Origin: Erysipelotrichaceae bacterium
GTDB lineage: Bacteria; Bacillota_I; Bacilli_A; RFN20; CAG-826
NCBI GenBank assembly: GCA_022777645.1
Contig: JALFFX010000005.1
Span: 1-63,236 of the forward strand
Reading direction: 5' to 3'
DNA: 63,236 bases
Position numbers and translations under genes: made by a program. Under the pieces are notes generated by a model. That model searched no databases. It was not told where the DNA came from and saw nothing but the letters and a program-made list of their open reading frames with translations. Below, piece after piece: positions 1 through 19,835 of the stretch; the stretch's first letter is position 1, and each line of letters begins with the position of its first letter.

Positions 1-237
1 AGACCTAGTGCAGATTTAAGAAATAGATATAAAGAAATAAGTGAACTATGTAAAACTACTGGCCAACCAGTTTATATAACAGTTAATGGCAGAGAAGATA
101 CCGCGCTTATTGATTCGCATGTTTTAGATGAACTTTATCAAACAATCAAATTGATGCAAGCAATAAACCAAGGAATAGCAGACGTTAATTCCGGAAGAGT
201 TATGTCCTTAGAAGACGCAAAAAAGAAATTAATATGA
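1..237 (+). CDS. Phd/YefM-family antitoxin, 5'-truncated by the window edge
   Basis: Frame 1 reads RPSADLRNRYKEISELCKTTGQPVYITVNGREDTALID..., which is typical of Phd/YefM. The TGA stop at 235-237 overlaps the ATG at 234 of the next gene (ATGA junction). Confidence 0.6.
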   Translation, partial: RPSADLRNRYKEISELCKTTGQPVYITVNGREDTALIDSHVLDELYQTIKLMQAINQGIADVNSGRVMSLEDAKKKLI

Positions 238-1070
238 CATATAAAATCATCATCACCAGTAGTGCTTTTTCTGATCTTGAAAGCATCAAACTTTTTATTG
301 CTAAAGATAATTTAGAAATTGCTAAAAAATACATCCTTAAAATATTTGATAGATTTGAACAATTAGAAACTTTCCCTTATAGTGGACTTAAAATAGCTAA
401 TTCTATTTTTGACTACGCGAAGGCATATTGCTTAATATGTGCTAATCATGTAGCAATATATCAAGTTAACGAACATACAAAATGTGTTTATATCTTAAGA
501 GTTTTATCTCATTATCAAGATTGGGAAAATATCGTTAACAAAGACATTCTTTGTAATAAACAAATCATTATTGAAAACGATAGATTGCAAATTGTCAGAA
601 TGAATCAATCAATGTACTGCGATATTTATAAAAATTCGCAAGATGATAACAATCGTAAATTTGCTCCCGATGAAGTATTTAATTCATTAGAAGAAACAAG
701 TGATGTAGTTAACCAAATTATCAATTCTTATGATAGTAAGGACGGACCATTTGTCTACACAGTTATAAGAAAGAAAGATAACATTAATCTTGGTTATGTC
801 CAATTAGTGAAAATAGAAGAAGGATGGGAAATTGGTTATCACATTGCTATGATTTATAACGGCAATGGATACGCCACTGAAGCTGTTAATCTATTTTTGG
901 ATCATATCAAAAACAATACGAATCTTAAACAAATAATCGGTATCGCTTTAGCATCTAATAAAGCCAGCAGAAGAGTGTTGGAGAAATGTGGATTTGAATT
1001 GATATATGAAGGTGCTGGAATATATCAAGGAAGAAAAAGAAAAATCATTAAAGCAATTAAACATTTATGA
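234..1070 (+). CDS. ParE/RelE-like toxin domain fused in frame to a RimJ/RimL-type GNAT acetyltransferase
   Basis: N-terminal ~100 aa: IIITSSAFSDLESIKLFIAKDN...VAIYQVNEHTKCVYILRVLSHYQDW (ParE-like). C-terminal ~170 aa: ENDRLQIVR...GYHIAMIYNGNGYATEAV...SNKASRRVLEKCGFE (Acetyltransf_3-like). There is no stop between the two parts. Confidence 0.55.
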   Translation: MTYKIIITSSAFSDLESIKLFIAKDNLEIAKKYILKIFDRFEQLETFPYSGLKIANSIFDYAKAYCLICANHVAIYQVNEHTKCVYILRVLSHYQDWENIVNKDILCNKQIIIENDRLQIVRMNQSMYCDIYKNSQDDNNRKFAPDEVFNSLEETSDVVNQIINSYDSKDGPFVYTVIRKKDNINLGYVQLVKIEEGWEIGYHIAMIYNGNGYATEAVNLFLDHIKNNTNLKQIIGIALASNKASRRVLEKCGFELIYEGAGIYQGRKRKIIKAIKHL

Positions 1071-1631: not shown

Positions 1632-4600
1632 TTACTCCTCATCAAAAAGGCTCATCTGAGTATAGGCTTCTTCTATATTCGGTAAATCTTTAACAACAAA
1701 TTCAAATAAGCTGATGATAGACTCATAATCTTTGACAGCACTGTTTGGAATACGAATTAGCTTAATTCCATATTGTTTACAGATGTATTCTTTTTGCCTA
1801 TCGAGTTGGGCGGTTCTTTTGCTACCAATGTGTTCGCCACCATCAATCTCAAAAACAACGATTGTGTGGTACTGGCGATTTAAAAAACCACCACTTACCT
1901 GGACAACAACATCGAATTCTTTTTTGCCCATTAATTTAAGATCATCTGTATTGATGGCTTTGATTGCTTCTTTTACAGGAACATTGCGTTCTACTCTAAA
2001 TTTGCTACCACGTCTATTGAAATATGGCTGAACGGTATCGAAGAAATCTTTTTCGTTTTTGGAGTCATTTGAAAAATCGTATGAAATCACAGCATCACTT
2101 TTAGGAACAATGATTTCACCATTCTTATATACATAATCAGACAAGACCTTAATGTCGTTGGTTTCTTCGCCACTTAATTTATCAATAGCTTCTTTATCAC
2201 CAACAAAAATAAACTTTTCTTTCGCTCTAGTAACACCAACGTTAATCAATTCATGATTGTTTTTAATCCAATCCATTGTCTTTTTACCAGTTCTTGGTGA
2301 AAGAGCGGCTGACATAATAATCACCGATTTCTCTGATCCTTGGAGCGTATGAATTGTTCCTGCTCTTACATTATTTACACCGTTTTTCATTAATAAATCG
2401 TTAACAAGAGCAGCTTGATTAACAAACGGGGTAATAATGCCTACATCTTCATATCCATTTTCTTTAATTATCTTTGCTATTTGAGCAGCTTCTTCACGAT
2501 AAGAATTTCTCGCTTCTGGGTTATATGTATTGTGGACATCGTAATAAACCAAGTCACCATTATTATCATTCAATAATTTTAATTGCTGCTCGTAGAATCG
2601 TTGATTTACGAAACTAGCAATCTTTCTTCCACATCTGTAGTGGTATCTAAGCAAAATATTTTTAGAGTTGTTGTCTTTGCGAAGCATTGTAGAAAGAATT
2701 GAGTTATGAACATAGTCATACTCCTCTCCAACACCATACTGATCCATCAACAATTCATTTACGTCTTGTTCTATGACTGTAACTGGCTGCAATTGATTTG
2801 TATCTCCAACTAAGAGCAAGTCTGTGCCTCTAACAATAGGAATTAGTGAAGTAGCAGTATTGCATTGGCCAGATTCGTCCATAATAACCAAGTCGAATTG
2901 TGGCTTTGGAGAGCCAAGCTTTTCACAAGATAAATTAGTGCAAATAACCAATGGAAAAATTGCTAAAAGCCTTCTTAGATTAGTGTCATTCCTCAAATAT
3001 TTATTGAATTGTCTGACCCCTTCTTCTAAATCATCAATAGCAATAATATCTCTTAGTTCTTTATACGTATCATTCGACAATCTTTTAAATCTCAATAAAG
3101 AAGAATAATAAACATAGTTTTGGAAGTTTTTGTCTTCCGATGCAGAAATAGCATATTTAAGGACATCTTCATCTTTAATGACTCTGGCGTTATTAAGCTT
3201 AGCTTGATATGCACCAATTTGATCATCAAGCTTGCCATTAATTTGTCCGATTGTTGTTAATTTTCTTATCTTTTGAAGAGTTTCTATTCTTTCTTTCAAA
3301 TCAACTTGTGATTCGTATTCCATAAGTAAGTTTTTTAACTCTTTAAAGCCAGATAGAGACCTGTTTTTACTTGCTTCAGTTAATTCTTCTTGAACTCTTG
3401 ATTTCTCGTGTCTTGAGACGAAATTCATTATTTCTCTTAACTTTCTTATGGTTTCTTGCGTTTCAATGTTATTGCCCAATCTAATCATTGGGAAAATAAT
3501 TTTTTCAGTCTCTGTTGAGAATGGCCTTTTAATAGAAAGAGATCCATCCATCTTCTTAAAGATATCATTTACAGGATGATTATTATTTGAGCACACTAAA
3601 ACGGTTTTATCGTTTGCGTAAGCAGATAAAAGAACATTGAAAATTGTTTCTGTTTTTCCTGTTCCTGGTGGTCCTTTAACATAAGTCACATGATTGACCA
3701 TTGAATTGTAAACTACCCTCATTTGGTCAATGTTGATTTTGTTTCTATTAAAAACAACAAGATTTACTTCTTTTGATGTTCCGCTTCTGCTCTTATTCCT
3801 TCCAAAGAAAGCCTTAAGTGGTATTGATAATTTGCCTTCTTGGTCCATTTCATGAATAGCTTCAAAAGCTTGATCAACGCCACGTTGAGAATCTCTCATC
3901 AGGAAAAATATGGTTGGACGTGTGTTTGATTTTTCGCCATTATGGAAATTTTCTTCAATATGTTTTTTATATTCTTCCTCATTTTTATCGTAAGTGGAAC
4001 AAAACTCATCCGCATCCATGTCTAAATACATTCCTAATGACACTTTCTTCCCGTCGATTAAGAATGATTTGTTAATAGATGATTTATCAGACATCTTGAG
4101 CGTTTTATTTTTGAAATTTAGTGTAAGCGTTCTATAAGCAACAACATATTGTTTGTTGTTTATGTCGATTGAAAACTTATTTATTGCTAATGTTTGATAA
4201 CGATTAATGATTTCAGCTTCATATTTTGTCTTTTTAAAAATCTTATCTAGAAGTGTATTGAATTGTTTGTCATCGAGTTCATATTTTCCTTTTTCAGAAA
4301 GAGTGTGAATATCAATTCCATCTACCATCACTATTTCTTTTAAGAAAGGATCGTTGTCCATGCGATAGCAATCAGAAAGATATCTTAAGATATTGTTATC
4401 AAAATTTACTACGTCAAGAAAATCTCCGATACTTTTATCTGTAGTAACCTTTGTTAATAATTCTTTGGATGTATCATAGTAGCTTTGCTCTAAAACAGAA
4501 GCAGATTTTATACCGTTTAGATAAATAAAGGTATCTGATTTATCTTTTATTACCTCAGTGCTTTTGAACGGATTAAAAATATCACAATAGATTCTGCCCT

Positions 4601-4730
4601 TTTCAATATCTATATCTTTAATTCCGATGTAATAGTCAGTCGTTTCTTCCTTTTTGTTTACATACGAAATATCCAACCATTTGTTGTGAATAATTGCCTG
4701 ATATATCGAGTTCTTGATTGATAATTTCAT
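1632..4730 (-). CDS. WYL-like N-terminus + SF1 (Upf1/DNA2-like, AAA_11/AAA_12) helicase + C-terminal PD-(D/E)xK (DUF2726/Vsr-like) nuclease
   Basis: Walker A VKGPPGTGKTE, Walker B VIMDESGQ, motif VI NVGVTRAKEKFIFVGD. C-terminus: FDVVVQV...VFEIDGGEH...LDRQKEYICKQYGIKLIRI. N-terminus: WLDISYVNKKEETTDYYIGIKDIDIEKGRIYCDIF (WYL-like). The ATG at 4730 is preferred over the upstream TTG at 4748. Confidence 0.75.
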   Translation of the reverse strand: MKLSIKNSIYQAIIHNKWLDISYVNKKEETTDYYIGIKDIDIEKGRIYCDIFNPFKSTEVIKDKSDTFIYLNGIKSASVLEQSYYDTSKELLTKVTTDKSIGDFLDVVNFDNNILRYLSDCYRMDNDPFLKEIVMVDGIDIHTLSEKGKYELDDKQFNTLLDKIFKKTKYEAEIINRYQTLAINKFSIDINNKQYVVAYRTLTLNFKNKTLKMSDKSSINKSFLIDGKKVSLGMYLDMDADEFCSTYDKNEEEYKKHIEENFHNGEKSNTRPTIFFLMRDSQRGVDQAFEAIHEMDQEGKLSIPLKAFFGRNKSRSGTSKEVNLVVFNRNKINIDQMRVVYNSMVNHVTYVKGPPGTGKTETIFNVLLSAYANDKTVLVCSNNNHPVNDIFKKMDGSLSIKRPFSTETEKIIFPMIRLGNNIETQETIRKLREIMNFVSRHEKSRVQEELTEASKNRSLSGFKELKNLLMEYESQVDLKERIETLQKIRKLTTIGQINGKLDDQIGAYQAKLNNARVIKDEDVLKYAISASEDKNFQNYVYYSSLLRFKRLSNDTYKELRDIIAIDDLEEGVRQFNKYLRNDTNLRRLLAIFPLVICTNLSCEKLGSPKPQFDLVIMDESGQCNTATSLIPIVRGTDLLLVGDTNQLQPVTVIEQDVNELLMDQYGVGEEYDYVHNSILSTMLRKDNNSKNILLRYHYRCGRKIASFVNQRFYEQQLKLLNDNNGDLVYYDVHNTYNPEARNSYREEAAQIAKIIKENGYEDVGIITPFVNQAALVNDLLMKNGVNNVRAGTIHTLQGSEKSVIIMSAALSPRTGKKTMDWIKNNHELINVGVTRAKEKFIFVGDKEAIDKLSGEETNDIKVLSDYVYKNGEIIVPKSDAVISYDFSNDSKNEKDFFDTVQPYFNRRGSKFRVERNVPVKEAIKAINTDDLKLMGKKEFDVVVQVSGGFLNRQYHTIVVFEIDGGEHIGSKRTAQLDRQKEYICKQYGIKLIRIPNSAVKDYESIISLFEFVVKDLPNIEEAYTQMSLFDEE

Positions 4731-4925
4731 GGATGTTGTCCTATGCAATCTCTTTAGATTTAATTAAATCGAGAATTGTGTTCAATAATGAAACTGGATA
4801 AATAATAACATCGTATTCTCTGCCACTTCCATCCAAGGATATGTAAATCCTAACTAAAGTTTACTATACCATAATTGCTTTTTCTTATCTATTTGTAGTT
4901 AAGAAGGATAAATTATTGTGAGAGT

Positions 4926-4971
4926 AAAAAGACCACAAATTCCTTTTGTATTAAGGAAATGTGGCCTTTTT
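4926..4971 (-). terminator. Strong, bidirectional-looking hairpin terminator after the dual-HEPN gene
   Basis: AAAAAGACCACAAATTCCTT-loop-AAGGAAATGTGGCCTTTTT sits 3 nt from the stop at 4974-4976. Confidence 0.7.
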
Positions 4972-4973
4972 AC

Positions 4974-6695
4974 TTACTTAGATAATTCTATTTCTATTAT
5001 TAACCCGCAATCTTTTTCGCTAATAATTACATATCCGAAACATGAACAGAAGAAAACTAATCTTTCACGGCTTTTTGTGTTGTCATAAAAATATAAGCAG
5101 TCATCGGTATCCGGCAAATGAACTTGAATGACTCTGATGCTTTGAATCTCGAAATTAGTAATCTCATTGAACATTGTCACATCGAAGAACGAATTCTTGA
5201 TATAAGCATTTTTCTTTGCTAATTCTTTTTTATCGTATTTCGGATAATCATCAATTACTTTATCCGTGTAATTAATGGCGATTTTATATTTTATTTTAAG
5301 AATCTTATTAATTAAGAATTCGCGTTTATACTCTTTGAAATTATTAAAAACATCTTTTTGATTACGTTCTAAAAAGTCAGAAAGTGATTTGATTGTTTTA
5401 ACAATATATTCCAAAGTAAACTGTCTTACCTCATCTCTATAAATAAGGTAATCATTTAAGACATAACCATGAGCACAAAAGTTCCTCAAATAAATGACTT
5501 CATTTAATATCTCATCTGGTGTATTGATATAGCTTAAGGCTTTAGCTAATGATGTGTAATCAGAACCTCTATTAATTTTTCTTGTTCTATAGATGAAATT
5601 TTCTGTAGCAAGTAATAATCGCGATAGACCATCCGTCATTAAAGATGACATGATTCTAAAGTCAGACGCTTTGTCTTTAAACATCAAAAGAGCAAGATTT
5701 TTATCAGCGTAAAATTTTGGTCTATTTATTTTTGAAATTATTTCGAATCTATCATTAATTACGGAAGCTGATTCCTTATTAAAAACGGTAATACCTGATT
5801 CATATAAGTAATCAACTAATCCAAAAGGCGGCAACAAATTTGCTAATCTTATGAATTCTTTCTCATCCTCAATCTTTAGAACATAATCATCTTTGTAATA
5901 AGTTCGCGTTAATGATCCTTTTTGAATAATCAATCTCTTGCCATCTAATGTACAATCAACCTTAAAAGTTGGATAAGTTTCTCTGCCTATTGAAATAGAA
6001 TACTTTGTTCCATCAATTGAAGCCTTATCAAAGAGTTCGCCCATTAAAGATGTAGCAATATCACTACCTCTCTTTTTACGTATTTCAATTTCTAAGTTTG
6101 TGTGACTGATTTCATTAACAAATCTTTGACCATCATCTAGCTCATATTTTCCGTTGCTAATAACGCCAATTAAATAGTCATCTTTATTTAAAGTTGCAAT
6201 AGATTGACTTCTTAAAAAACTTAAAACGATAAAAAGCACCCCGGCAACGGTAACCTTATCATCAACTAAGTATTTAATAGATCCGTGAAAATGTTTTTGA
6301 TTTTGTAAGAAAGAAAAATCCGACTCTAAGAAGGATGTATCTTCTTTGCTAATAAAAACATGAGCGTTAATGTTTCTTAATGAAGTTAAATAATAACTCA
6401 ATTTTTCAATATCAACAGAATCACCATTATTAAACATAGTCAAGCAAGCATTTGGATACATTTCTTTTAATTTGTTTTCGTCAACAGAGACCATCGATAA
6501 ATCACAGCCAAAGGTACCTCTTATTGTTCTTTCAATATCAATAATTCCGCTTAAGATATTTGCTTTAAGATGGCTGAAATACGACCTGTCAACAAATTGA
6601 ATTTTGGCTTTATAGAAATCTTGTGCGGTCATGTTTAAGAGTTCTATTACATCGTTAATGTTACTATTGTTTCTGGTTCCAATTTTAAATGCCAT
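4974..6695 (-). CDS. Dual-HEPN protein (two RNxxAH motifs), putative RNase effector
   Basis: R107-NINA-H112 is encoded at 6360-6377 and R404-NFCA-H409 at 5469-5486; I verified both by reverse-complementing the DNA. Strong RBS AAGGAGAA lies 6 nt upstream of the ATG. Confidence 0.6.
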   Translation of the reverse strand: MAFKIGTRNNSNINDVIELLNMTAQDFYKAKIQFVDRSYFSHLKANILSGIIDIERTIRGTFGCDLSMVSVDENKLKEMYPNACLTMFNNGDSVDIEKLSYYLTSLRNINAHVFISKEDTSFLESDFSFLQNQKHFHGSIKYLVDDKVTVAGVLFIVLSFLRSQSIATLNKDDYLIGVISNGKYELDDGQRFVNEISHTNLEIEIRKKRGSDIATSLMGELFDKASIDGTKYSISIGRETYPTFKVDCTLDGKRLIIQKGSLTRTYYKDDYVLKIEDEKEFIRLANLLPPFGLVDYLYESGITVFNKESASVINDRFEIISKINRPKFYADKNLALLMFKDKASDFRIMSSLMTDGLSRLLLATENFIYRTRKINRGSDYTSLAKALSYINTPDEILNEVIYLRNFCAHGYVLNDYLIYRDEVRQFTLEYIVKTIKSLSDFLERNQKDVFNNFKEYKREFLINKILKIKYKIAINYTDKVIDDYPKYDKKELAKKNAYIKNSFFDVTMFNEITNFEIQSIRVIQVHLPDTDDCLYFYDNTKSRERLVFFCSCFGYVIISEKDCGLIIEIELSK

Positions 6696-6831
6696 ATGAT
6701 TTTCTCCTTAATCTAGTAATACAAATGAAGAGTTTATTTTCTTTATTCTTTCTGCTGGTTTCTTATCGACACCAATATTATATAATGAAAATAGATAGCA
6801 AAACGTTTTTGTCCCAAAAAGAGTAACAAAT

Positions 6832-7605
6832 TTATTTAAATGATATTTCTTCATATCCCAAATCTTTAGAAACACATACATGGTCACCATAGATCGGAAC
6901 TAGTTTATCGACTTTAATTAAATCTTTAGCAGGCCCTTCATCACATACAACACCATTATGAATAAGCACAACATTCGCATTTAAGAATAGTGCGTGATTA
7001 GGATTATGTGTGGAAAGAATAATTGTTTTATTTTCTTCTTTAGAAATATCTTTTAGAAGAGATAAGACTAGATTTTGATTCTTCATATCGAGAGCGGATG
7101 TTGGCTCGTCTAGAAGTATTACTGGTGTTTTTTGGATTAAAGCACACGCTATTAAGACTATTTGAAGTTCGCCACCACTTATCTCACCTAGATTCTTATC
7201 TAATAAATGAGTGATATGGAGTTTTTCGGCTGTAGCTTCAACTAGTTCCATTTCTTCTTTGCCAGGATGCTCATAGAATGCGAGCGTGTTTGTAGTTCCG
7301 TAAGATAAATATTGCCTAACAGGAACATCGTTAGTGACATTAGCTTGTTGAGGCACATATGAGAATGTTTTTGCTCTTTCTCTAATCTTCATCTTTTGGA
7401 GGTCAAAGAGGCCATATTCAATAATTCCTTCTAAAGGTTTTTCTAATCCAGCAAGTAGCTTAATTAATGTTGTTTTGCCACAGCCATTTAAGCCGAGCAA
7501 AACATTAACAGAACCTTCTTTGATGTTGAGGTTTATTGAATTTAACACTGGTTTTGCAGCTTTTTTATCATATTTAAAAGATAAATTAGATGTCTTTATG
7601 CTCAT
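6832..7605 (-). CDS. ABC transporter ATP-binding protein (FepC/BtuD-like)
   Basis: Walker A GLNGCGKTT, signature ISGGELQ, Walker B ILLDEPTSALD. Confidence 0.85.
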   Translation of the reverse strand: MSIKTSNLSFKYDKKAAKPVLNSINLNIKEGSVNVLLGLNGCGKTTLIKLLAGLEKPLEGIIEYGLFDLQKMKIRERAKTFSYVPQQANVTNDVPVRQYLSYGTTNTLAFYEHPGKEEMELVEATAEKLHITHLLDKNLGEISGGELQIVLIACALIQKTPVILLDEPTSALDMKNQNLVLSLLKDISKEENKTIILSTHNPNHALFLNANVVLIHNGVVCDEGPAKDLIKVDKLVPIYGDHVCVSKDLGYEEISFK

Positions 7606-8611
7606 TTAACTTACTCCTTTTAACAATTAAAATTACTACAAATATAAGCGTACCAATTAAGCCTGTCACCGCACTTAATGGAATCTCTGAATCAGTAAAT
7701 GTTCTAGAAAGTATATCGACTAAAATCGTAAATGTTCCACCGAAAGTAATGCATAAAGGTATTGTTCTTTTAGCGTCTCTTCCAGCTAGCAAACGTACGA
7801 TATGTGGAATAACTAAACCGATCCAAGATATGGTTCCGCAGAAGCATACAGATATAGCTGTAAGAACAGTTGATAAAACAATAATTAAACCACGATAAAA
7901 GTTATAGTTAATGCCTTTTGTTTGAGCTTCTGCTTTTCCTTGATTAACTAAATTAATTGGATGGGAAATAAGAAGCAAAACAATAACGCAAACAACTACC
8001 ACTCCCATGAGGATGTAATTGCGATTCATATCAGCGCTTTCGAATGAGCCCATCAACCAATATGTAATACTAGCGAGTGTTGTAATATCGGACGAAAAGT
8101 ATTTGATCATCGATAAGATTGCGGACATGAATCCACCAACTATAATGCCAGACAAGAGCAAAATAGTTGATGAACCATTTCTAAATAGTTTCGATATCAA
8201 CACTGTTGCAAAAACAGTTAATAAACCTATAACAAATGCAAATACACTAATTAATGCAGATGACAATCCAAGAACAATAGCAAGTGCTGCACCTACTGAC
8301 GCTCCAGTACTAACACCTAATAAATCAGGCGATACCAATTTGTTTCTAAATGTTTCTTGGTAAAGTAAACCAGATAACGACAAGCCGATTCCAACAAATG
8401 CGGCCATTATCGTTCTAGGAAATCTAAGGTTAGTAATAATACTTCTTTGTGTATCTAATGATGAATCATCAGTAAAGACAGCCTTGAAGAAATCTCCAAT
8501 TCCGATTTTGTATCTGCCAAGCATTAATGCAAGAGCAAATATAATAGCAAATACGGCTATAGAGATAATAAATGATATTATTGTTCTTCTTTTTAATACT
8601 TTCTCATTCAT
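7586..8611 (-). CDS. FecCD-family ABC permease
   Basis: Polytopic membrane protein with an RFPRTIMAAFVGIGLSLSGLLYQ-type FecCD signature. Its start overlaps the upstream stop (TAATG). Confidence 0.85.
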   Translation of the reverse strand: MNEKVLKRRTIISFIISIAVFAIIFALALMLGRYKIGIGDFFKAVFTDDSSLDTQRSIITNLRFPRTIMAAFVGIGLSLSGLLYQETFRNKLVSPDLLGVSTGASVGAALAIVLGLSSALISVFAFVIGLLTVFATVLISKLFRNGSSTILLLSGIIVGGFMSAILSMIKYFSSDITTLASITYWLMGSFESADMNRNYILMGVVVVCVIVLLLISHPINLVNQGKAEAQTKGINYNFYRGLIIVLSTVLTAISVCFCGTISWIGLVIPHIVRLLAGRDAKRTIPLCITFGGTFTILVDILSRTFTDSEIPLSAVTGLIGTLIFVVILIVKRSKLNEHKDI

Positions 8612-9675
8612 TAATATAACGAGCCACCTTGTGGATTAAGTCCATTGAGCATATAAGAAACTTGATCATCAGTTAAGTCAGTTCCAAAATACTCTTTAAT
8701 GGTTGTTTTAACCATGTTTGAAATATCATATGAGAAATACTCAGGGTAAATCTTGTTAGCTTGGTCATAGAAGAATATTGGTGTCATAGCGGATAATTGT
8801 TCAAAAGCAGTAAATCCGATTGGGATGTTATAGACTTTATTGTTTTTAACCGCATCTAAATTAGTATATGGCTCTTCTGTTTTGAGGGCGTTGATGTTTT
8901 TGTTTTGATATTGACCACCACATACAAAGATATCTGGATTTTGAGCTACGATTTCTTCTTGAGAAGGTTTGTTTGTTGTTAAGGATGCGCCGATAAAATC
9001 AAATCCTAAAGATCTATATGCATATTCAGTGAAAGATCCTTGGTTGTCAGTATAACCAACACCTTTATCTTTATCTCCACGGACATAAAATACTTTCTTT
9101 TTGGTTATATCGTGCTTAGCTAGCTCAGTAGTTACCTCACTAATTGCGGTTGTGACTTTGTTTTCCCAAACTGCTGCTTTTGCTTTGATATCATCACCAT
9201 CCCAAATCTTAGTGACTAATTGAGATAAAAATGTGACGTAATTGTCAAATGTTGGATTTCCATACAAGGAAACACATAAAGCAGGCACACCGTGTGCATT
9301 TAAATCATCAGCAATGTACTTTTCAGGAGCAAATACTAAATCTACTCCTCTTGATAAGAAGAGCTCACTGCTATTTTGATACTCATATACATAATGATTT
9401 TTACTTTCTGGATAAATCAGTGGTACCCAATCATTATTTAATGTGCCTTTGTAAGCTCCATCAATTTTGTCTCCTAGACCATACGCTACTAATAAGTCAT
9501 ATGTTGTTCTAGAGACGCAAGCTACCTTTTTAGGGTTCTTGTTGATGGTTATGGTTGTGCCGACCATATCGGTTACAGATATTGTTTCTTGAGTTTCACC
9601 CTTATTGGAGCAACCTGTAATAACTCCAAGAGAAGTGACTGCCACTAAAAATGGCAAAAATTTACTTTTTAACAT
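8611..9675 (-). CDS. ABC substrate-binding lipoprotein (PF01497-like; siderophore, heme or B12 class)
   Basis: Lipobox LGVITGCS, followed by KKVACVSRTTYDLLVAYGLGDKIDG, typical of class III binding proteins. Confidence 0.75.
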   Translation of the reverse strand: MLKSKFLPFLVAVTSLGVITGCSNKGETQETISVTDMVGTTITINKNPKKVACVSRTTYDLLVAYGLGDKIDGAYKGTLNNDWVPLIYPESKNHYVYEYQNSSELFLSRGVDLVFAPEKYIADDLNAHGVPALCVSLYGNPTFDNYVTFLSQLVTKIWDGDDIKAKAAVWENKVTTAISEVTTELAKHDITKKKVFYVRGDKDKGVGYTDNQGSFTEYAYRSLGFDFIGASLTTNKPSQEEIVAQNPDIFVCGGQYQNKNINALKTEEPYTNLDAVKNNKVYNIPIGFTAFEQLSAMTPIFFYDQANKIYPEYFSYDISNMVKTTIKEYFGTDLTDDQVSYMLNGLNPQGGSLY

Positions 9676-9697
9676 ATAAAAAGGTCCTTTTCCTGGA

Positions 9698-9781
9698 GAT
9701 TAATAGTCAATAACCAGTCAGGCCGACAGATACGTTAACAAGACAAATAACGTATCAAATCGTTTTATAAGACTATTAATC
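9698..9781 (-). promoter_or_regulatory. Structured 5' leader of the ABC importer operon (nested hairpins)
   Basis: Outer 11-bp stem GATTAATAGTC (9698-9708 pairs with 9771-9781). Inner 9-bp stem GATACGTTA (9729-9737 pairs with 9748-9756). The outer arm abuts the RBS region at 9685-9694. Confidence 0.35.
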
Positions 9782-9855
9782 AACCAATTATATTTTAACA
9801 TATCTCGATTAAAGGCACCCACCCTAATATCAATTAGGGCAGGCACCAAATATAT

Positions 9856-11202
9856 TTAAATTGTGGCTTTAGGTTGTGTTGATACAGCAGCAACGCCATT
9901 GAATGAATTGAGAATCATTTCTACTTCACGCTTAGAAAGTCTCTCTTTTTGCTTTAGCTCTTTATAGATGGCATCAACAAGCGATTTGTTCTCAGAAATC
10001 AATGCTTTAGCTTTTTCAAATGCTTCAGTTAATAAATCGCATTCAAGTTCTTCAATCTTTTCAAGTCTTGTTTCTGAAGTTGGGAAAGATTCGTGGGAAA
10101 ATCTTCCAATTTGAGCGTTCGGTAATAATTTATCAAAGCCAAACGCACCAACATTAACTAGTTGAGAAATGTATTCTCTGGCTTTTCCGATATCATCGCT
10201 AGAACCGCTGGTTACGTCACCACACATAACTTGTTCACCAGCTAAACCACCAAGCATTGTTATTAATTTCTTTTTCAGTGTATCTCTTGTTACAGGCTCA
10301 AATTTAATGATCTCTTTATCATAATAAACATGACCCATAACTCTTCCGAATCTTTCGGTTGAGATAGAACCAACAATGCCACTTTGCTTATATTCTGCAA
10401 TAAAATGACCAATTTCATGATAGCAAGTCATATCACTTGGACCATTTCTGCTCTTCTTTTTGATATCTTGAAACATTACGACAGGGATATTTCTTTCAAA
10501 ATCAGCAAGTGTAATATTTTCAATACCTTGAGAAACACAATCAATAATTGTTTCGTTGATTAGTGTTTTAATATCAGCGCCAGAAAAGTTTGCGGTTTTA
10601 AGTGCCAGCTGATGAGCGTCAATATTGCTTAAGCGTTCGTTTCTTGAAAGATAGAGTTTAATTATTTCTTCTCTATCAATCGTATCAGGCATTTCAACTG
10701 TGATTCTTTTGTCCATTCGCCCACTTCTAATCAAAGCAGGAGGGAGCATTGGACGGTAATTTGTGGTGGCAATGACTAAAATGCCATCACTAGATGAGAT
10801 TCCATCAATTTCTGTTAATAGAATCTTTGTTGTTTTTCTTGAGTAGTCAGATCTGAAATCGGATGTCATGACTAATTCATCAAATTCGTCAATAAATACA
10901 ATTGATGGAGCGTTTTCTCTAGCTTTTGTGAATAACGCTTTAATAGATTTGATGGTTTCGGATTCGGTTTCGCCTTCGTTACTCTCGAATTCAAAGAACG
11001 GGACATTACTTTCGTTAGCTATAGCTTTAGCAAGCATAGTTTTACCCACACCGGGATTGCCGGAAAGGATTAAGCCTTTTGGAATATAGGCACCAATCTT
11101 TTCATACTTTTCGTGATTCTTTAAAACCTCGATTATTTTCTTTGCTTCGGCCTTTTCTTCTTCATAGCCAGCGATATCTTTTAAATAGATTTTATCGGTC
11201 AT
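9856..11202 (-). CDS. Soluble FtsH-like AAA+ ATPase fused to an M41 zinc metalloprotease (no transmembrane segment)
   Basis: Walker A GNPGVGKTMLAK, Walker B IVFIDEFDEL, SRH TTNYRPMLPPALIRSGRMDKRI, zinc site HEIGH, and GSSDDIGKAREY matching the FtsH G-x-x-ND-I-x-x-AT region. The protein starts directly at the AAA module. Confidence 0.75.
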   Translation of the reverse strand: MTDKIYLKDIAGYEEEKAEAKKIIEVLKNHEKYEKIGAYIPKGLILSGNPGVGKTMLAKAIANESNVPFFEFESNEGETESETIKSIKALFTKARENAPSIVFIDEFDELVMTSDFRSDYSRKTTKILLTEIDGISSSDGILVIATTNYRPMLPPALIRSGRMDKRITVEMPDTIDREEIIKLYLSRNERLSNIDAHQLALKTANFSGADIKTLINETIIDCVSQGIENITLADFERNIPVVMFQDIKKKSRNGPSDMTCYHEIGHFIAEYKQSGIVGSISTERFGRVMGHVYYDKEIIKFEPVTRDTLKKKLITMLGGLAGEQVMCGDVTSGSSDDIGKAREYISQLVNVGAFGFDKLLPNAQIGRFSHESFPTSETRLEKIEELECDLLTEAFEKAKALISENKSLVDAIYKELKQKERLSKREVEMILNSFNGVAAVSTQPKATI

Positions 11203-11321
11203 ATAGACCCCCTTTCATATTTGTAAATCTATCGAAAAAGCCATCATATCCCCGCTAAATTGCAGAAATTAGATGGCAAAACACAATTATTCGTTTTGTT
11301 ATTTTGCTCTCTTCTTTTTAA

Positions 11322-12118
11322 TTAAATCAAAGGCAAAATAGATGTTTGAAGGTCTTCAGGAAGATAGGGCATCACTTTATCTTCATCATAATAAGTTAGT
11401 CCATAATATGCTTCCGCTATTGAACCAGTAATTGCAGCTTGAGTATCACTATCAGCCCCTAAAGAGATGGCTTTTCTAATAGCGTCTTCAAAGCTTGTTG
11501 ATTCAATGAAAGCACATATGGCTTGTGGAACGCTTCCTTGGCATGTTACCCAGTTACCAAGTTCGTCAAGACCATATCCACTCGCTTTAAGCTTTGCGAT
11601 AGACATATCTGCAAGATCAGGGTAATAAGAGATCATTTTAGATTTGATTTCTTCTTTTGATTCACCAGTTCTTGCCATGAATATTGCCACGGCTATTGCT
11701 TCAGCGCCTTTTATGCTTCTGGATGATTGTGTGTAATCTCAGTAGTCAATTTACTCAATTCAATTGTTTCCTCTAAGGTATCACACACCCATCCAACCGG
11801 AGATATTCTCATAGCAGACCCATTTCCATAATTACTTAATGGAGTTGGAACACTGTATTTGAATAACTAGGCATAAAACATTTTTTCCCAACCAAAATTA
11901 GGATGTTTATGAGTTATATCCTTCATGTTTCTGATTAGGGTATTTTTATAATTATCTCTGTTGTTTCTTGTTACCACTAAGGTTAAAGCCACAGCAAGAG
12001 TCATCAATGTATCTTCTGCAAAATGGCAGGATGGATGAAACATCGGGAAGTCATATTCGTTGAACCCAGATAATTCAAACCTGGATCCAACGATAGCACC
12101 ATATATTGCGCCCAGCAT
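11322..12118 (-). pseudogene. ADP-ribosylglycohydrolase (ARH) family gene, disrupted
   Basis: N-terminus MLGAIYGAIVGSRFE..., middle GNGSAMRISPVGW, C-terminus SDTQAAITGSIAEAYYG. An in-frame TAG lies at 11867-11869 and a +1 frame change lies near 11690-11720. Confidence 0.7.
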
Positions 12119-13104
12119 TATTTCTTCTCACACATATCTACAAATTCTTGATATGTAATGATTTTGCCAGCGTATGGGTATCTTAACCCATTAGCTAGTT
12201 GCTCTTTATTCTTTTCATCTAAGACGACAAGGAAGTCGGAACCGTTAATTCTGTCATAAGCAACAAAACCATTTTCTTCAATGAGCCTAATGAGATTCTT
12301 GAGTTCTTCGTGATTCTCTTTCATTTCGCCACTAACGGTCACAAATTTGCCAATTGAGTTCGCGTCTTCAAGCAATGGTTCGTGTTTACGATATAATTCG
12401 CCCCATAATACTTGTCCTTCATCTCTTTTGGCTTTGTTCTTGCGACCTTGTTCTCTAGCCTTTCGTCTTTCTTTTCTTAGTGGTTCATCAGCTTTATATC
12501 GTTCCCAATACTCTAAAGCCATTATTTTTGATTTTGGACACGCTTCAATCATGTCATTAACTGAGAACTCTAAGTCTTTCAACATAGCAGCAAAGACAAG
12601 CATAGTCTTATATGCATCATCAACAGCTCTATGATCTTTTAGTTCGTTTCTAATATGTTCAGGAACCAATTCAAGGAAAGCTTTTTCTAAAGATGTAAAC
12701 TTACTGTTCTTTCTTGAGAATTCAGGTAGCATCTTTTGAATGTCATAAACTACATAATCAAATGGTTTAAGTTTATAAATAGGGCGGTTGCAATCTTTGA
12801 TAATGAATCTAATATCGTTTTCTACACCATGACCAAAGATTAATAAATCTGGTTGAGTCATGAGGAACTTGATATTGTCATAAGCATCATCAAAAGCGGG
12901 ATGTTTGTAATACTCTTCATATGGATATGTAAGTATTAGGTCCTTCTGCCCTGTTCTTCCAGTCAAATTAAATTTGCACTCAGGGTTAATAAGTGTGTTT
13001 GTTTTCTTTATGATTCTAAACTGTTCATCACAAAGGACAAATCCGAACTCACAAATAGCTTTATTGCCATCTGCACATTCGATATCGAAAAATAAGTATC
13101 GCAT
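12118..13104 (-). CDS. DEDDh (DnaQ-like) 3'-5' exonuclease with a BRCT-like C-terminal domain
   Basis: ExoI FFDIECA, ExoII FGHGVENDIRF, ExoIII HRAVDDAYKT. C-terminus: VTVSGEMKENHEELKNLIRLIEENGFVAYDRINGSDFLVVLDE...AGKIITYQEF. Its stop overlaps the ARH start (TAATG). Confidence 0.7.
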   Translation of the reverse strand: MRYLFFDIECADGNKAICEFGFVLCDEQFRIIKKTNTLINPECKFNLTGRTGQKDLILTYPYEEYYKHPAFDDAYDNIKFLMTQPDLLIFGHGVENDIRFIIKDCNRPIYKLKPFDYVVYDIQKMLPEFSRKNSKFTSLEKAFLELVPEHIRNELKDHRAVDDAYKTMLVFAAMLKDLEFSVNDMIEACPKSKIMALEYWERYKADEPLRKERRKAREQGRKNKAKRDEGQVLWGELYRKHEPLLEDANSIGKFVTVSGEMKENHEELKNLIRLIEENGFVAYDRINGSDFLVVLDEKNKEQLANGLRYPYAGKIITYQEFVDMCEKK

Positions 13105-13251
13105 AAATATACCTCTCTTTCTTGCGGGATACAGATATACTCGTAGTTAGCGAGAAATATCCTATAGGAAGTTTTGTTCATATTTTATATAGGAATATAA
13201 AATTTAAAGACTAGTTTACCGTAAGTTTTTTGATGTTTTTAAGAAAACGAT

Positions 13252-16050
13252 TTAGTCTTTTCTATTATAGTTATATTTATTAAATAAGGTATACTGCGCT
13301 CTTTCGCCAGGTGCGGTTTTTCTTAAAGTTGGCAAAGCTCTAACATCGTCATTAAATAGTGATTTAAGAGTATAGCCCAACTTGTCTGAGAAATTACTAA
13401 TGATGTAAAGGAAAATGAAACTTTTTGAATAGCCATCATCTCTTTTTTCTAGCGCTTTAATAATTAATTTTGCTTTTTCCGGAGTATTTATTTTTCGTTT
13501 GAGTTCTATGTACGCTTTTTTGATTGCATTATTAAAATTCATTTTCTTCAATTCAAAATCATTATTCCTACTTTGATCTCTGATCTTGGTCACTGCTTCA
13601 TTAGTTGCATCCAATATTTCAATTGCCTCTCTAACTTGCGCGTAAACAGGCCCAGAAATATTTTTTGTATCAAGCCCTTCACAAATTAGGTCAAAGAATG
13701 GAATTGTTTTTGTTCTAATATCACTGTCAAATTTATTTCTACTTACGGCATCCCATAAGTAATCCATTGCCGTTTTAAACTCTCGCTCTTTATTACTTTC
13801 TTCTTTGATTTTACTGATCTTTGGCTTATGGCCATTCTTTTTAGTTACAACAGTAAAGAATAACGGCTTTGTTTTTAGGAGCCCATTTACCTTAGCGTAT
13901 TTTCTTAATCTGTTATATTCTGTTGTTGTATTGAATGGAAATGAGCGTTTGGCGCTATCAATTTCTGCACCAGATAAAACCGATAAAATAGCTATTTGAT
14001 TATATAACTCTTTGTAAGCTTTATTTTTTCCATTACCGAATTTATTCCATAAGTGGCTATTTAACAATTGAGACAAATTAACTATCTTTCCAACATTATT
14101 GTTAGCAATCTCGTTATCGATCGTATAAAGATTCAAAATTAAGTTAGTTTTCTCATCATGACATTTGAAATCTTTTAAAGGTTTTTTCTGCGAACCAAAA
14201 CCAGTAAAAGGAACAGGGAATAAACTATAATTCTTTTCGGCAGCAGCAACAAGGATATCGTTATCTGTTAAGAGCATTGAATCTGAGTCATAATCACACC
14301 CACTTAACCTCTGCTGAATATTGTTGTTAATAGCGTCAACTACCACTATTTGCTTGGTAAGATTGAAATACTGATTAATTTCTTTTAATTCTTTATTCTC
14401 AACCAATAAGACATTACCCATTGTTGTATGAGGCGCTCTGGAACCAACAAGCTTCTTTCCATTTTCAAAGAACGAACAACATATTTCTCCATCTTTCAAC
14501 AAAGAGGACGGACAGTTAGGATCAAAGCTTTTAATAATATATTTTAAATATTCATAAGGATTTCCAAACAAAGTTGCATATGTTCCATTAACAAGGACTT
14601 TTCCGTTATAAAGTTTTAAAAGTAAGCTATCAACTACACTACTGAAAACGCGTTTTTTAAACAAATCTGTGTGTCTAACTCTTCCATCAATTTTTATTAG
14701 TTCAAGACACACTTTGTTCTTAAAAGAATAGCTCGAGTAATTAAGTAGTTCTTTTTCAGCATTAATATCATTGGTATCCTTTGAATCATCGCTGTAGTCG
14801 TCATATTGATTCCCTGTGTCTTCACCCTCTAAATAAAAGCGAATAAACTCAGGCGTGTTTTTAATATCTCTAATGAGTTTAATATATTCAAAATAAAGAT
14901 GAACAAAGTTGCTTACATTATTTTGCTTTAGCTGAAGTGAATTAAGTAGTTGATAAGTTGTTTCCACCATTTCGCCATCAAAAAATCTGGTAGGCTTGTC
15001 TGTTTTAACAACGCCGAATTTTGTTTCATCTGTGTTGATTTCGTCACACCATCTCTTAATATTTTCTTTAGAAAAACCGCCGTCACACATCTTTAGATAT
15101 TTGAGGCACGATTCACTAGCCACCAAGACAATATCATCTATAGATTTTGCAAATGTAACGCCATTCAATTGATCAAGACTAGTTATGTTGTTGTCTTTAA
15201 ACCATTTTTTTAGATTTGTGTTAAAGGCGCAGCACTTAAAGAAACGACTTCTTAGCAGCATCATTCCTTTCTTTTGCTTTTTTATTTTTCTAAAAACACT
15301 TTCATCAAGTAGCCCTTCGCCATCAAAAATATTGTTCTCGACATCACATATAGATTCTTCGGCATTGAGTCCACTCTTTTTGTCGTGATAAACCCTAACA
15401 ACGTTTTGGTTCTTTAGAGTTACCTTCACGTCTTTAACAAACAAAATATTGTATGGATTTAAGTCTAATGTGGTAATGACACTACTTAACGATAAAGCTC
15501 TGTAAGCTTCATACGATGTTAAATCTTTAAAACACAAGTCTTTAAATTCATCCAATCCAGCTCTTGACCATTTGGTCATCATAGGAGAAAGATCTTTTTT
15601 AATGAATAAGCAACTTCCGCCTTTAGCAGCTCCGCTTGAACGTTTATATCTAACATACTTTTTTCCATTCAAGACAAAACCATTTAGGTATAGATACTTT
15701 CTAATATCTTGAATAGGTATCTTTGTTTCAAACTTCTTGGTTGGAATAACCTGTTCTTTCTTCTTATTTACATAAAGGGGGTATTTAAATGAGACGTTGA
15801 CAAAAACATCAGAGTAATACTCTTCCCCTAACTTTTTGAGCGTTAGTTCCTTTTTGCTTTCTAAATAATATAAATCTAGGTTAGGCGGCACAATGTCTGA
15901 ATACTTGTCGTTAAATTCATCCTTGCCATTCTTGATTTCTATTGGCTTATTGTAGATTGATGAGTAATAAAGGTCTGCAGCTTCTATTTCAATAAATCTA
16001 ATATTATCCATATAGATAAGTTTATCATTTATGGGCTTAAAACTCGTCAT
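13252..16050 (-). CDS. Eukaryotic-type RdRP / YonO-like two-barrel (DPBB) polymerase homolog
   Basis: Ordered motifs: RSSGAAKGGSCLF (aa 137-149), FDGEGLL (242-248), LLRSRFFKCCAF (265-276), GSRAPHTTMGNVLLV (536-550), SGCDYDSDSMLL (583-594). DYDSD is encoded at 14281-14295 and was verified on the DNA. Confidence 0.55.
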   Translation of the reverse strand: MTSFKPINDKLIYMDNIRFIEIEAADLYYSSIYNKPIEIKNGKDEFNDKYSDIVPPNLDLYYLESKKELTLKKLGEEYYSDVFVNVSFKYPLYVNKKKEQVIPTKKFETKIPIQDIRKYLYLNGFVLNGKKYVRYKRSSGAAKGGSCLFIKKDLSPMMTKWSRAGLDEFKDLCFKDLTSYEAYRALSLSSVITTLDLNPYNILFVKDVKVTLKNQNVVRVYHDKKSGLNAEESICDVENNIFDGEGLLDESVFRKIKKQKKGMMLLRSRFFKCCAFNTNLKKWFKDNNITSLDQLNGVTFAKSIDDIVLVASESCLKYLKMCDGGFSKENIKRWCDEINTDETKFGVVKTDKPTRFFDGEMVETTYQLLNSLQLKQNNVSNFVHLYFEYIKLIRDIKNTPEFIRFYLEGEDTGNQYDDYSDDSKDTNDINAEKELLNYSSYSFKNKVCLELIKIDGRVRHTDLFKKRVFSSVVDSLLLKLYNGKVLVNGTYATLFGNPYEYLKYIIKSFDPNCPSSLLKDGEICCSFFENGKKLVGSRAPHTTMGNVLLVENKELKEINQYFNLTKQIVVVDAINNNIQQRLSGCDYDSDSMLLTDNDILVAAAEKNYSLFPVPFTGFGSQKKPLKDFKCHDEKTNLILNLYTIDNEIANNNVGKIVNLSQLLNSHLWNKFGNGKNKAYKELYNQIAILSVLSGAEIDSAKRSFPFNTTTEYNRLRKYAKVNGLLKTKPLFFTVVTKKNGHKPKISKIKEESNKEREFKTAMDYLWDAVSRNKFDSDIRTKTIPFFDLICEGLDTKNISGPVYAQVREAIEILDATNEAVTKIRDQSRNNDFELKKMNFNNAIKKAYIELKRKINTPEKAKLIIKALEKRDDGYSKSFIFLYIISNFSDKLGYTLKSLFNDDVRALPTLRKTAPGERAQYTLFNKYNYNRKD

Positions 16051-16123
16051 ATTTATTAGAGTATCGTTTTTCTTACTGCTTATGTTGTTTTGTCCCCATA
16101 TTGGTTACAAAAAAATCTACCGA

Positions 16124-16327
16124 TTACTCGATAGAAATTCTTGTAATGTCGAGAAGCTTGCAAATCTTGAAGAATGTGTCAATGTCTGTACCGCGATTTA
16201 GAATTCTGGAAACGGTCTTACGACTTGCGCCTAACTTCTTGCCGAAATTAGTTTGATTCTTATATTTGTCTTTGATTCGACATTTAATTTCTTCCATCAC
16301 TTTAGCGGAAGAGAAGCAATCATTCAT
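16124..16327 (-). CDS. Small Xre/Cro-type HTH protein
   Basis: NQTNFGKKLGASRKTVSRILNRGTDIDTFFKICKLLDI. Strong RBS GGAGGAGGAAAG. Confidence 0.65.
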   Translation of the reverse strand: MNDCFSSAKVMEEIKCRIKDKYKNQTNFGKKLGASRKTVSRILNRGTDIDTFFKICKLLDITRISIE

Positions 16328-16380
16328 AAATCTTTCCTCCTCCGTAAAACTGAGGTTAGATTAATGATTGCTCAACTATT

Positions 16381-17346
16381 TTATATCAAATCAAAATAAT
16401 TGTCTTTTAAAATTCTCAATAGCGATTCGTCAGAGTTCCACCAAGACTCACCAGGTTCTTCGTCATAAACCAATTTGCAGAACTCTTTTGAAAACTCTAG
16501 CAGATTATTTAGGATGTCATCTACAAACGTTGGACCTATCTTAAGCCAATGTCCTGCATACATGCCATTTTCGTATGGTTTGCCTGCTTCTTTTTTTGAA
16601 TAAACATGCTGTGCCAAAAAAGCCTTTAAGTTCGCATCTTTTTCTCTAGAATTACACGCAATGGATAAATATGATTTCACAGTATTGTGTTTTAAGAAGT
16701 TATCAATTTTGTTCAATAAATCAAAGTACTTGAAATGTTGAAGTTGAAAAAGCGGATTCGTTTCAGCACTTGTGGCGCCAGTCTTTGCTTGAACATAGTC
16801 ACAAAATGATCCAAACGTAAAATCATAGTTGTTTGGATAGCCACGGTCTTTTATAACAACAAGAAGAGCACGGAAGTACTCGGCAAATATTTTTTGAATA
16901 TACTGAAGGTGAATGCTTTTAATTACTTCATCGTATTTATTCTCTCTTCTTAAGCTTTCCCTTAAAGCTTCAAATTCAATTTCTTCCATATCTTCTCCAG
17001 GTGAAGAGGAAAACATTAACTGACTAGTTCTGGATTGATCATAAACTTGTCTTGGGGTTGTCAAACCCTTAATAGCATCTTTGTATTCTGTGTTCCAATC
17101 TTTAGCCAATATATTAAGTTGCGTTCTTAACAGATTGATTGCCCATTCACTTTCGCTTTTATGTTTTGGAACAAAATAATGGGTGTTTCTCGGCATTGAA
17201 AACATTGCTTCAGGAAAAGACCCATCACAATGGAGTTTCTTTAATCTTTTGGTGTCAATATGATATCTTCCATCTTTTAAATGGAAACCATAATAGGTGT
17301 AGTCACTTGGACTATATTTAGAATAGTCGAATAATTCTTTAGCCAT
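16381..17346 (-). CDS. Hypothetical protein (no recognisable domain)
   Basis: Long ORF. I prefer the ATG at 17346 (MAKELFDYSKY) because AAAGAGG lies 7 nt upstream. Confidence 0.5.
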   Translation of the reverse strand: MAKELFDYSKYSPSDYTYYGFHLKDGRYHIDTKRLKKLHCDGSFPEAMFSMPRNTHYFVPKHKSESEWAINLLRTQLNILAKDWNTEYKDAIKGLTTPRQVYDQSRTSQLMFSSSPGEDMEEIEFEALRESLRRENKYDEVIKSIHLQYIQKIFAEYFRALLVVIKDRGYPNNYDFTFGSFCDYVQAKTGATSAETNPLFQLQHFKYFDLLNKIDNFLKHNTVKSYLSIACNSREKDANLKAFLAQHVYSKKEAGKPYENGMYAGHWLKIGPTFVDDILNNLLEFSKEFCKLVYDEEPGESWWNSDESLLRILKDNYFDLI

Positions 17347-17664
17347 ACATAAACCTCTTTCATCCTTACTTTGTCTACTTATGCTATATGCAGCACACCA
17401 CTCCTTGAACACGTCAACATAGGCGTCGCAATGGAAACAACTTAATATCCTTGCTCCTGCTGCGAATTTATACTATCACATCATCTAATCAACTCCAACT
17501 TTTGTCCCCAAAAATGTCCCAAGGATAAGCAAAAAAGAAAACCATAACACTAAGTGTTATTTATCCACAACCTTCCTCAATGGTGGTAGTAATGAATGGA
17601 TAATTTAATTTGAAAATCTAATGAAATAATAAAAACTAAAACGTCGTTTTTTACTATCGTTAAA

Positions 17665-19834: not shown

Positions 19835-19835
19835 T

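Follow-up and report, generated by a model that had tools for sequence, protein, structure and literature searches.

A rare family of single-chain proteins with two predicted HEPN domains and no CRISPR array, present as an orphan of a methyltransferase operon in an Erysipelotrichaceae bacterium

The DNA analysed here is a 63,236-nt stretch of contig JALFFX010000005.1 from an Erysipelotrichaceae bacterium (assembly GCA_022777645.1), referred to below as the window, and the gene in question is an open reading frame (ORF) at positions 4974-6695 that encodes a 573-aa protein with two RNxxAH motifs of the HEPN type (the dual-HEPN gene). The window is chromosomal, with genes for a two-component system, Trk transport and an aldolase. 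The ORF, on the minus strand, opens with ATG and closes with the stop codon TAA at 4976-4974; a plus-strand reading of the same interval was rejected, its translation being riddled with stops. An earlier note on this DNA had given the interval without a strand, so that the ORF itself stands and the minus strand is added here as a correction, and the two motifs were found in the translation at exactly the residues the note had named. The ribosome-binding site and terminator that it had ascribed to the gene were also recovered. Given the composition of the protein, 8.6e-4 matches to RNxxAH are expected by chance, and the probability of two or more is 3.7e-7. Further loose Rx4H matches at aa 37 and aa 521 lie outside the conserved columns of the family alignments. 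The gene and its signals are as follows.

4974-6695, minus strand: coding sequence of the dual-HEPN protein (ORF list, translation, homolog clusters, substitution rates, structure model).
6360-6380, minus strand: first Rx4H motif, LRNINAH, aa 106-112; R107 and H112 invariant in 95/95 sequences, N110 in 85%.
5469-5489, minus strand: second Rx4H motif, LRNFCAH, aa 403-409, running on as H-G-Y; R404 and H409 invariant in 95/95, N405 in 98%, Y411 in 52/62 core members.
6704-6709, minus strand: ribosome-binding site AAGGAG, 8 nt 5' of the ATG, overlapping the stop codon of a lost methyltransferase gene by 2 nt, an arrangement also seen in the related loci L004 and L009.
4923-4974, minus strand: intrinsic-terminator hairpin and U-run, starting from the last base of the stop codon (RNA fold -26.3 kcal/mol, z = -8.0; 0/200 shuffles as stable).

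No consensus promoter was found in the 137-nt gap upstream of the gene.

Relatives of the protein are few. A word-indexed search gave 32 homolog clusters, nearly all of about 570 aa, unnamed and metagenomic, and an exhaustive profile search of 1.84 billion representatives gave just 110 proteins. These fall into three size groups, namely a core of about 570 aa, a group of about 590-650 aa (the ~630-aa branch) and a group of about 460 aa. The ~630-aa branch has positions 15-510 in common with the core, the profile matches stopping near position 510, and in the ~460-aa group the profile match is split into two stretches. Among 185,579 species representatives, relatives were present in 11, a rare and patchy distribution, and the carriers are rumen and gut metagenome-assembled genomes (MAGs) of Bacilli, Acholeplasmatales, Clostridia/Christensenellales and Gastranaerophilales. 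The full-length protein and its distant relatives had no match in Pfam, NCBIfam, PADLOC or PHROGs.

Both motifs were invariant in 27 homologs with identity as low as 32%. In an alignment of 95 sequences covering the three size groups, exactly four columns were 100% invariant, and these are R107, H112, R404 and H409; E365 was 99% conserved and position 55 was acidic in almost all sequences. The ~460-aa group lacks an insert of about 130 aa between the motifs, with a motif spacing of about 170 aa vs 297, and retains both R/H dyads. The gene is under purifying selection, with a ratio of nonsynonymous to synonymous substitution rates (dN/dS) of 0.12-0.14 against close relatives.

An AlphaFold2 (AF2) model of the monomer was compact, with a predicted local distance difference test score (pLDDT) of 91.6 and a predicted template-modelling score (pTM) of 0.90. 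In the DSSP assignment of this model, a short N-terminal element precedes HEPN1, and both motifs form helix ends inside all-alpha regions. The insert between the domains, which had been placed at aa ~170-340, is corrected by the same assignment. The predicted domains are as follows, all delimited by DSSP of the AF2 model except where other evidence is given.

6096-6590, minus strand: HEPN1, about aa 36-200, all-alpha, with a long first helix at aa 39-62 carrying E55, R56 and R59 and a helix at aa 96-111 that ends in the motif.
5676-6095, minus strand: inter-HEPN insert, about aa 201-340 (~130-140 aa), with a five-strand beta sheet at aa 226-275 followed by short helices.
5700-5732, minus strand: basic motif KxNxPKFYxDK, aa 322-332, closing the insert (K322, K327, Y329 and K332; invariant in alignment A2).
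5151-5675, minus strand: HEPN2, about aa 341-515, with a long helix carrying E365, a helix at aa 394-408 that ends in the motif, a beta hairpin at aa 416-425 and long helices.
4977-5150, minus strand: C-terminal alpha/beta domain, about aa 516-573, beta-beta-alpha-beta-beta, not common to the ~630-aa branch.

The ~460-aa branch lacks the basic motif, which was conserved in 62/62 core members and in 18-19/19 members of the ~630-aa branch and may bind nucleic acid. The C-terminal domain gave local Foldseek matches to protein G B1 and to ubiquitin-like beta-grasp folds, at probabilities of about 0.4-0.5 that are not significant.

The two halves of the protein are similar to each other. With the 95-sequence alignment, hhalign aligned aa 36-200 with aa 340-515 over 145 columns (prob 64%, P 6.6e-5), and the alignment is in register, pairing E55 with E365, R107 with R404 and H112 with H409. 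By sequence, the halves are an old internal duplication, since the N- and C-terminal domains align in this way. An internal-repeat search with the 27-sequence alignment gave no duplication signal, that alignment being too shallow. The proposal that one chain carries two HEPN motifs is thus strengthened, with the four R/H residues as the sole invariant positions in 95 relatives and the halves in register.

Pfam searches with individual segments gave further, weaker matches. When the HEPN2 segments of 16 members were compared one by one with Pfam, the HepT-like family PF01934 was matched in 6/16 (best E 1.2e-3); for the window copy the match had an E-value of 0.056, below the cut-off, with an alignment across the Rx4H region. 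Abi_2 (PF07751) was matched by 1/16 HEPN2 segments, at an E-value of 9e-3 that is below the cut-off, and not by the full protein. Apart from the HepT-like family, no family recurred in more than two of the 16 members. When the protein, its family profile and the profiles of the two domains were searched against sequences of the Protein Data Bank (PDB), the sole match was an RmlC epimerase, rejected as spurious because it lacks the R and H residues.

How the two domains would pair is a separate matter. HEPN domains could pair between chains, HEPN1 with HEPN1' and HEPN2 with HEPN2', giving a homodimer or oligomer with two or more active sites, as in the dimerising HEPN toxins and the dodecameric DARNA. 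Most HEPN proteins do dimerise across chains (PMC12165695; bioRxiv 10.64898/2026.02.22.705581), and each domain here has a full set of R, H and acidic residues. Against such pairing, both dyads are invariant together in 95/95 sequences, the minimal ~460-aa forms included, and the monomer model is compact at its pTM of 0.90. The HEPN2 domain modelled in isolation (pLDDT 85.5) had outer helices less confident than in the full-length model, which weakly suggests intramolecular packing. We consider pairing between chains rather unlikely.

In the genomes of most close relatives the gene stands at the end of an operon. Next to the genes for relatives P0011, P0003, P0022, P0025 and P0004 (40-87% identity), the dual-HEPN gene closes a conserved operon in the order helix-turn-helix (HTH) regulator, small protein, NrdG, NrdD, in some cases a metallophosphoesterase, a thymidylate-kinase-like protein (Tmk), an 806-aa methyltransferase and the dual-HEPN protein. 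The methyltransferase, in which a Type III Mod-like N6_N4 domain follows BspA-type leucine-rich repeats (LRR), lies directly upstream of the dual-HEPN gene in seven distinct loci (L014 and L008 included), with a gap of about 10 nt in five loci and of 364 nt in L008. In those of the seven loci that were sampled in full, the two genes close the NrdG-NrdD-Tmk operon. The search of homolog neighbourhoods for partners, which the earlier note had proposed, therefore yields this LRR/Type III-like methyltransferase as a recurrent upstream gene. None of the NrdDG-Tmk-methyltransferase genes was found elsewhere in the window, which retains the following remnant.

6708-6764, minus strand: 3' end of the methyltransferase gene, 57 nt, 18 codons (KKPAERIKKINSSFVLLD) and a stop (DNA alignment with L004 and L009; tblastn with methyltransferase C-termini, 72% identity over 18 aa).

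DNA homology to L004 and L009 runs from 6757 through the dual-HEPN gene. In L011, whose copy is 95% identical, homology breaks 29 nt before the start codon, and in L012 (72% identical) the methyltransferase survives as a decayed remnant of 42 codons, interrupted by a stop. Given these remnants and breakpoints in the window, L011 and L012, the methyltransferase has been lost at least three times with the dual-HEPN gene intact, and dN/dS between two orphan copies was 0.13. The gene had been called autonomous in the earlier note, which is wrong as a description of its ancestry.

The locus L004 also indicates how the window may have arisen. It contains decayed pieces (948-1375) of the window's periplasmic-binding-protein gene (window 9796-9407 and 8752-8702), and the same FtsH-like gene is found in L004 and the window; the window keeps the ABC transporter and the methyltransferase stub, and L004 keeps the operon. 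The two look like the outcome of reciprocal deletions, starting from an ancestor with both the ABC transporter and the operon, and the junction just upstream of the dual-HEPN start looks recombination-prone. A separate arrangement was seen in L015 (Acholeplasmatales MAG, 8530-20978), where the dual-HEPN gene is apart from the operon, with NrdG-NrdD-Tmk-methyltransferase 3.3 kb downstream, and has an ATPase_2/DUF234 gene and a DUF4238 gene as its neighbours.

The ~630-aa branch has an operon of its own (L016-L019 and L022, about 4100-13900), encoding a radical S-adenosylmethionine (radical-SAM) enzyme, a 1,615-aa protein, the dual-HEPN protein, a SLOG cluster 4 protein, a UDP-glucose-dehydrogenase-like protein and a 257-aa protein. 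The 1,615-aa protein has class I methyltransferase and GT2 glycosyltransferase domains, and the start of the dual-HEPN gene overlaps it; in L022 a homolog of the HTH regulator of the Bacilli operon lies upstream. Beside a minimal 476-aa relative in L010 (4901-7431), a different setting was observed, in which the gene overlaps the stop codon of a 366-aa gene with an unknown product and adjoins genes for a PLD-helicase-DUF3427 protein and a Nudix hydrolase.

This linkage could be taken to mean a modification-coupled pair in which the methyltransferase marks self nucleic acid and the dual-HEPN protein, as the restriction-like arm, attacks unmarked molecules. The tight linkage of the two genes in seven distinct loci, the resemblance of the methyltransferase domain to Type III Mod enzymes, and the position of the ~630-aa branch directly after a large methyltransferase/glycosyltransferase protein all speak for such a pair. 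The repeated, independent deletion of the methyltransferase beside a nuclease gene that stays intact and under purifying selection speaks against it, since this loss would be lethal for a true pair. No Res-type helicase-nuclease gene was found beside the methyltransferase-HEPN pair. HEPN enzymes moreover cut RNA, whereas N6_N4 methylases act on DNA. We regard a pair of this kind as very improbable.

The company of NrdG, NrdD and Tmk suggests another possibility, a housekeeping or regulatory RNase of nucleotide metabolism, acting in the turnover of nrd/tmk transcripts or the processing of stable RNA, with no role as a toxin or in defence. In its favour, the gene closes the conserved HTH-NrdG-NrdD-Tmk-methyltransferase operon in relatives that span 38-87% identity, and it is chromosomal, with no copies found in phage, plasmid or IMG/VR collections. 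A housekeeping function sits poorly with the small number of carriers (11/185,579 species representatives) and with the ease with which the gene is parted from the operon (window, L011, L012 and L015). The downstream side is also variable and often contains defence or mobile-element genes. We consider a housekeeping role improbable.

On that downstream side, the genes differ by locus and include AddAB, a Type III restriction-modification system, recombinases with a Fic protein and a Type I S subunit, and a DUF4238 gene with an ATPase gene, and several of the dual-HEPN loci are variable or defence-rich, the window itself having a Mokosh-like helicase and a ParE fusion. In the window, the downstream neighbour at 1632-4748 (minus strand) encodes a 1,038-aa superfamily 1 (SF1) helicase (AAA_11/AAA_12) whose C-terminal match to DUF2726, at 23.6 bits, is just under the Pfam cut-off of 24.7. 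The helicase has strong PADLOC matches to the Mokosh helicases MkoC and MkoA, and the gene has its own start after the terminator of the dual-HEPN gene. Mokosh type II proteins have a phospholipase D (PLD) nuclease at the C-terminus, where the window helicase has its DUF2726-like domain. The adjacency of the helicase, which had been noticed before, is real; its candidacy as a functional partner was rejected, and it is not a conserved partner, because, outside the window, the two genes are neighbours only in the 95%-identical L011.

Other features of the window were noted in passing. A 278-aa ORF at 234-1070 (plus strand) encodes a ParE toxin domain (aa 5-97) fused to a GNAT acetyltransferase (aa 118-255), an unusual toxin fusion. 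Upstream of the ABC transporter, at 9856-16050 (minus strand), stands a series of odd genes, comprising a 448-aa AAA+/M41 FtsH-like protease with PADLOC matches to IetA, whose Pfam matches begin from residue 44 and leave little space for the N-terminal membrane segment of FtsH; a 122-aa fragment corresponding only to the C-terminal end of an ADP-ribosylglycohydrolase; an exonuclease of the RNase_T type; and a 932-aa protein that matches nothing in Pfam. Two sets of three tandem 23-nt direct repeats each, intergenic-looking and iteron- or operator-like in appearance, were found at 51894-51981 and 59287-59384 and are unrelated to the dual-HEPN gene.

Two HEPN motifs in one chain invite comparison with Cas13. 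Neither the window nor any of seven homolog loci (L001, L004, L005, L007, L008, L009 and L010) was found to contain a CRISPR-like array, in agreement with the earlier observation that no repeat array lies on either side of the gene, and no Rfam RNA was found near it, the abiF-associated RNA RF03085 included. The description as Cas13-like holds for the two motifs in one chain and fails as homology to any Cas13 subtype, and is best kept as an analogy. The likeness to Cas13an and Cas13bt/X consists of two HEPN domains, each with R-N-x3-H, in one chain, and of the LRNxxAHG flavour of the HEPN2 motif. Cas13an is also proposed to have a paired-HEPN origin, by fusion of two related AbiD/F-like HEPN genes (PMC12165695), comparable to the internal duplication in the present family. 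An hhalign comparison with the Cas13an profile gave 7% over the full length, with co-linear motif order, which is not significant; HEPN2 against HEPN2 of Cas13an gave a prob of 27% (P 6.5e-4), and hmmsearch and blastp against Cas13an gave matches at the motif level only. The present family differs from Cas13 in having no CRISPR array or guide locus, in its insert and C-terminal domain, and in having a methyltransferase as the ancestral operon partner.

The protein could still be an RNA-guided nuclease like Cas13an, with a guide encoded elsewhere or a non-CRISPR RNA as guide. Its 573 aa lie within the 429-577 aa of the compact Cas13an proteins (PMC12165695), its motif order is co-linear with their profile, and Cas13bt3 heads the Foldseek list, providing the top two PDB matches (E 0.026 and 0.047, prob 0.18, TM-score 0.15), which are not significant. 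The absence of arrays and of nearby Rfam RNAs and the lack of significant similarity to Cas13an argue against guidance, as do the about 10-nt upstream gaps, because they leave no space for a guide gene. The genes downstream also differ by locus, where no search was aimed at a conserved non-coding element beside the gene. RNA guidance is considered extremely unlikely.

The layout itself, two HEPN domains in one chain with no CRISPR, is not new, because Cas13an and a few non-CRISPR single-chain HEPN dimers have been published (PMC12165695). The latter, intramolecular HEPN dimers that are uncharacterised as well, include G7MBT4 of Clostridium (467 aa), A0A1Y6ANL6 of Bacillus (509 aa) and eukaryotic DUF4209 (Yoon et al. 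2024, PMC12165695). They share with the present family two HEPN domains in one chain without CRISPR and differ from it in motif variants and length. When portions of about 400 aa of the two bacterial dimers were compared by hmmsearch and blastp, no similarity beyond the motif was found. Judged by sequence, the proteins described here are a new and rare family of predicted single-chain dual-HEPN proteins with an insert, C-terminal domain and operon partners of their own and no significant similarity to the published ones.

Among other known systems, HepT (DUF86) is the sole recurrent Pfam family for the HEPN2 half, and the HEPN2 motif of the window protein runs on as H-x-Y, as in HepT. The HepT motif is Rx4HxY. 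HepT differs in being a small single-domain dimer neutralised, in HepT-MntA toxin-antitoxin systems, by an adjacent MNT nucleotidyltransferase, and the matches of the present family are all below the Pfam cut-off. The adjacent window genes scanned, for an ABC ATPase and the SF1 helicase, gave no MNT-type (NTP_transf_2) match, and the homolog loci have the methyltransferase upstream. AbiD/AbiF (Abi_2) proteins share an RNxxAH-type motif and a likely abortive-infection biology, and differ in having one HEPN per chain where the present family has two. DARNA (PD-T7-3) was rejected as a relative, having one HEPN domain per chain and an unrelated architecture.

The anticodon nucleases PrrC and RloC, which are associated with restriction-modification genes, resemble the present family in that a HEPN RNase is genetically embedded with DNA-modification genes, which suggests that a methyltransferase complex and a latent nuclease are coupled. 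The N-domain of PrrC is an ABC ATPase, each chain has a single HEPN domain, and PrrC lies inside a Type I system, whereas the partner in the present family is a single LRR and Type III-like methylase that is dispensable. PrrC is regulated by protein interaction (bioRxiv 10.64898/2026.02.22.705581).

Taken with moderate confidence, the dual-HEPN protein is best read as a single-chain endoribonuclease with one composite active site, latent, that serves as a toxin or defence effector. It would be a metal-independent enzyme whose single chain combines two HEPN domains, homologous and diverged, with each domain giving an Arg and a His (R107/H112 and R404/H409) and an acidic residue of the first helix (E55 and E365), and the composite site would form within the monomer, by analogy with Cas13. 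The ~140-aa insert, which bears the basic motif, and the small beta-grasp-like C-terminal domain may bind the substrate or a trigger and hold the enzyme latent. Its most likely role would be that of a toxin or defence effector, triggered by stress or phage, that cuts cellular RNA. The ancestral LRR and Type III-like methyltransferase may restrain or inform the nuclease, as the EcoprrI restriction-modification proteins do with PrrC. In the window, deletion of the methyltransferase and the preceding genes has left an intact, still-selected orphan, which is probably read through from the upstream ABC-transporter genes.

Several results weigh against this reading. None of the curated HEPN families was matched above threshold by the protein or its segments, and the HEPN1 segments gave noise only against Pfam, with no family-level match. 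PADLOC 2.0 assigned zero families to the window protein and 10 distant relatives, and no PHROG match was found. With Foldseek, the full model had no significant match in the PDB or BFVD, and the isolated HEPN2 model had none in the PDB, where a HepT-type toxin (5yep_C) stood at rank 35 with an E-value of 3.7; the structural comparison proposed in the earlier note thus returned no significant match to Cas13 or to any HEPN fold. These Foldseek negatives are weak, because Foldseek is reported also to fail to connect Cas13an with the other Cas13s (Yoon et al., PMC12165695). The conserved upstream genes in most relatives resemble nucleotide metabolism (NrdDG, thymidylate-kinase-like) and not defence. 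Any regulatory dependence on the methyltransferase cannot be obligatory either, because the methyltransferase is lost while the dual-HEPN gene stays.

A bolder version of the effector reading starts from the observation that two deep branches have one plan, namely an HTH regulator, a radical-SAM enzyme, nucleotide or sugar-nucleotide enzymes, a methyltransferase and the dual-HEPN protein. In Bacilli this takes the form NrdG-NrdD-Tmk-LRR/methyltransferase-HEPN, and in Clostridia and relatives radical-SAM-1,615-aa methyltransferase/glycosyltransferase-HEPN-SLOG. The dual-HEPN protein could then act as the RNA-cutting effector in an as yet undescribed immune system that is coupled to modification and senses the state of the modification machinery or of its product, and could represent an independent tandem-HEPN fusion of pre-CRISPR style, parallel to the origin of Cas13. 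We hold this to be quite unlikely.

Cas13 provides the best-known single chains with two HEPN domains, and how such chains arise is a question about the origin of Cas13. The family described here offers a compact, CRISPR-free tandem HEPN with a detectable duplication, a minimal form of about 460 aa and two larger forms, and could show how a tandem-HEPN RNase acts before, or without, RNA guidance. Should it be only another latent HEPN toxin, the result would be a useful annotation of a dark protein family and no surprise. The recurrent operons with a methyltransferase and a radical-SAM enzyme in uncultured gut and rumen Firmicutes may indicate an undescribed coupling between modification and RNA cutting, and the repeated survival of the nuclease past the loss of the methyltransferase heightens the interest of the family.

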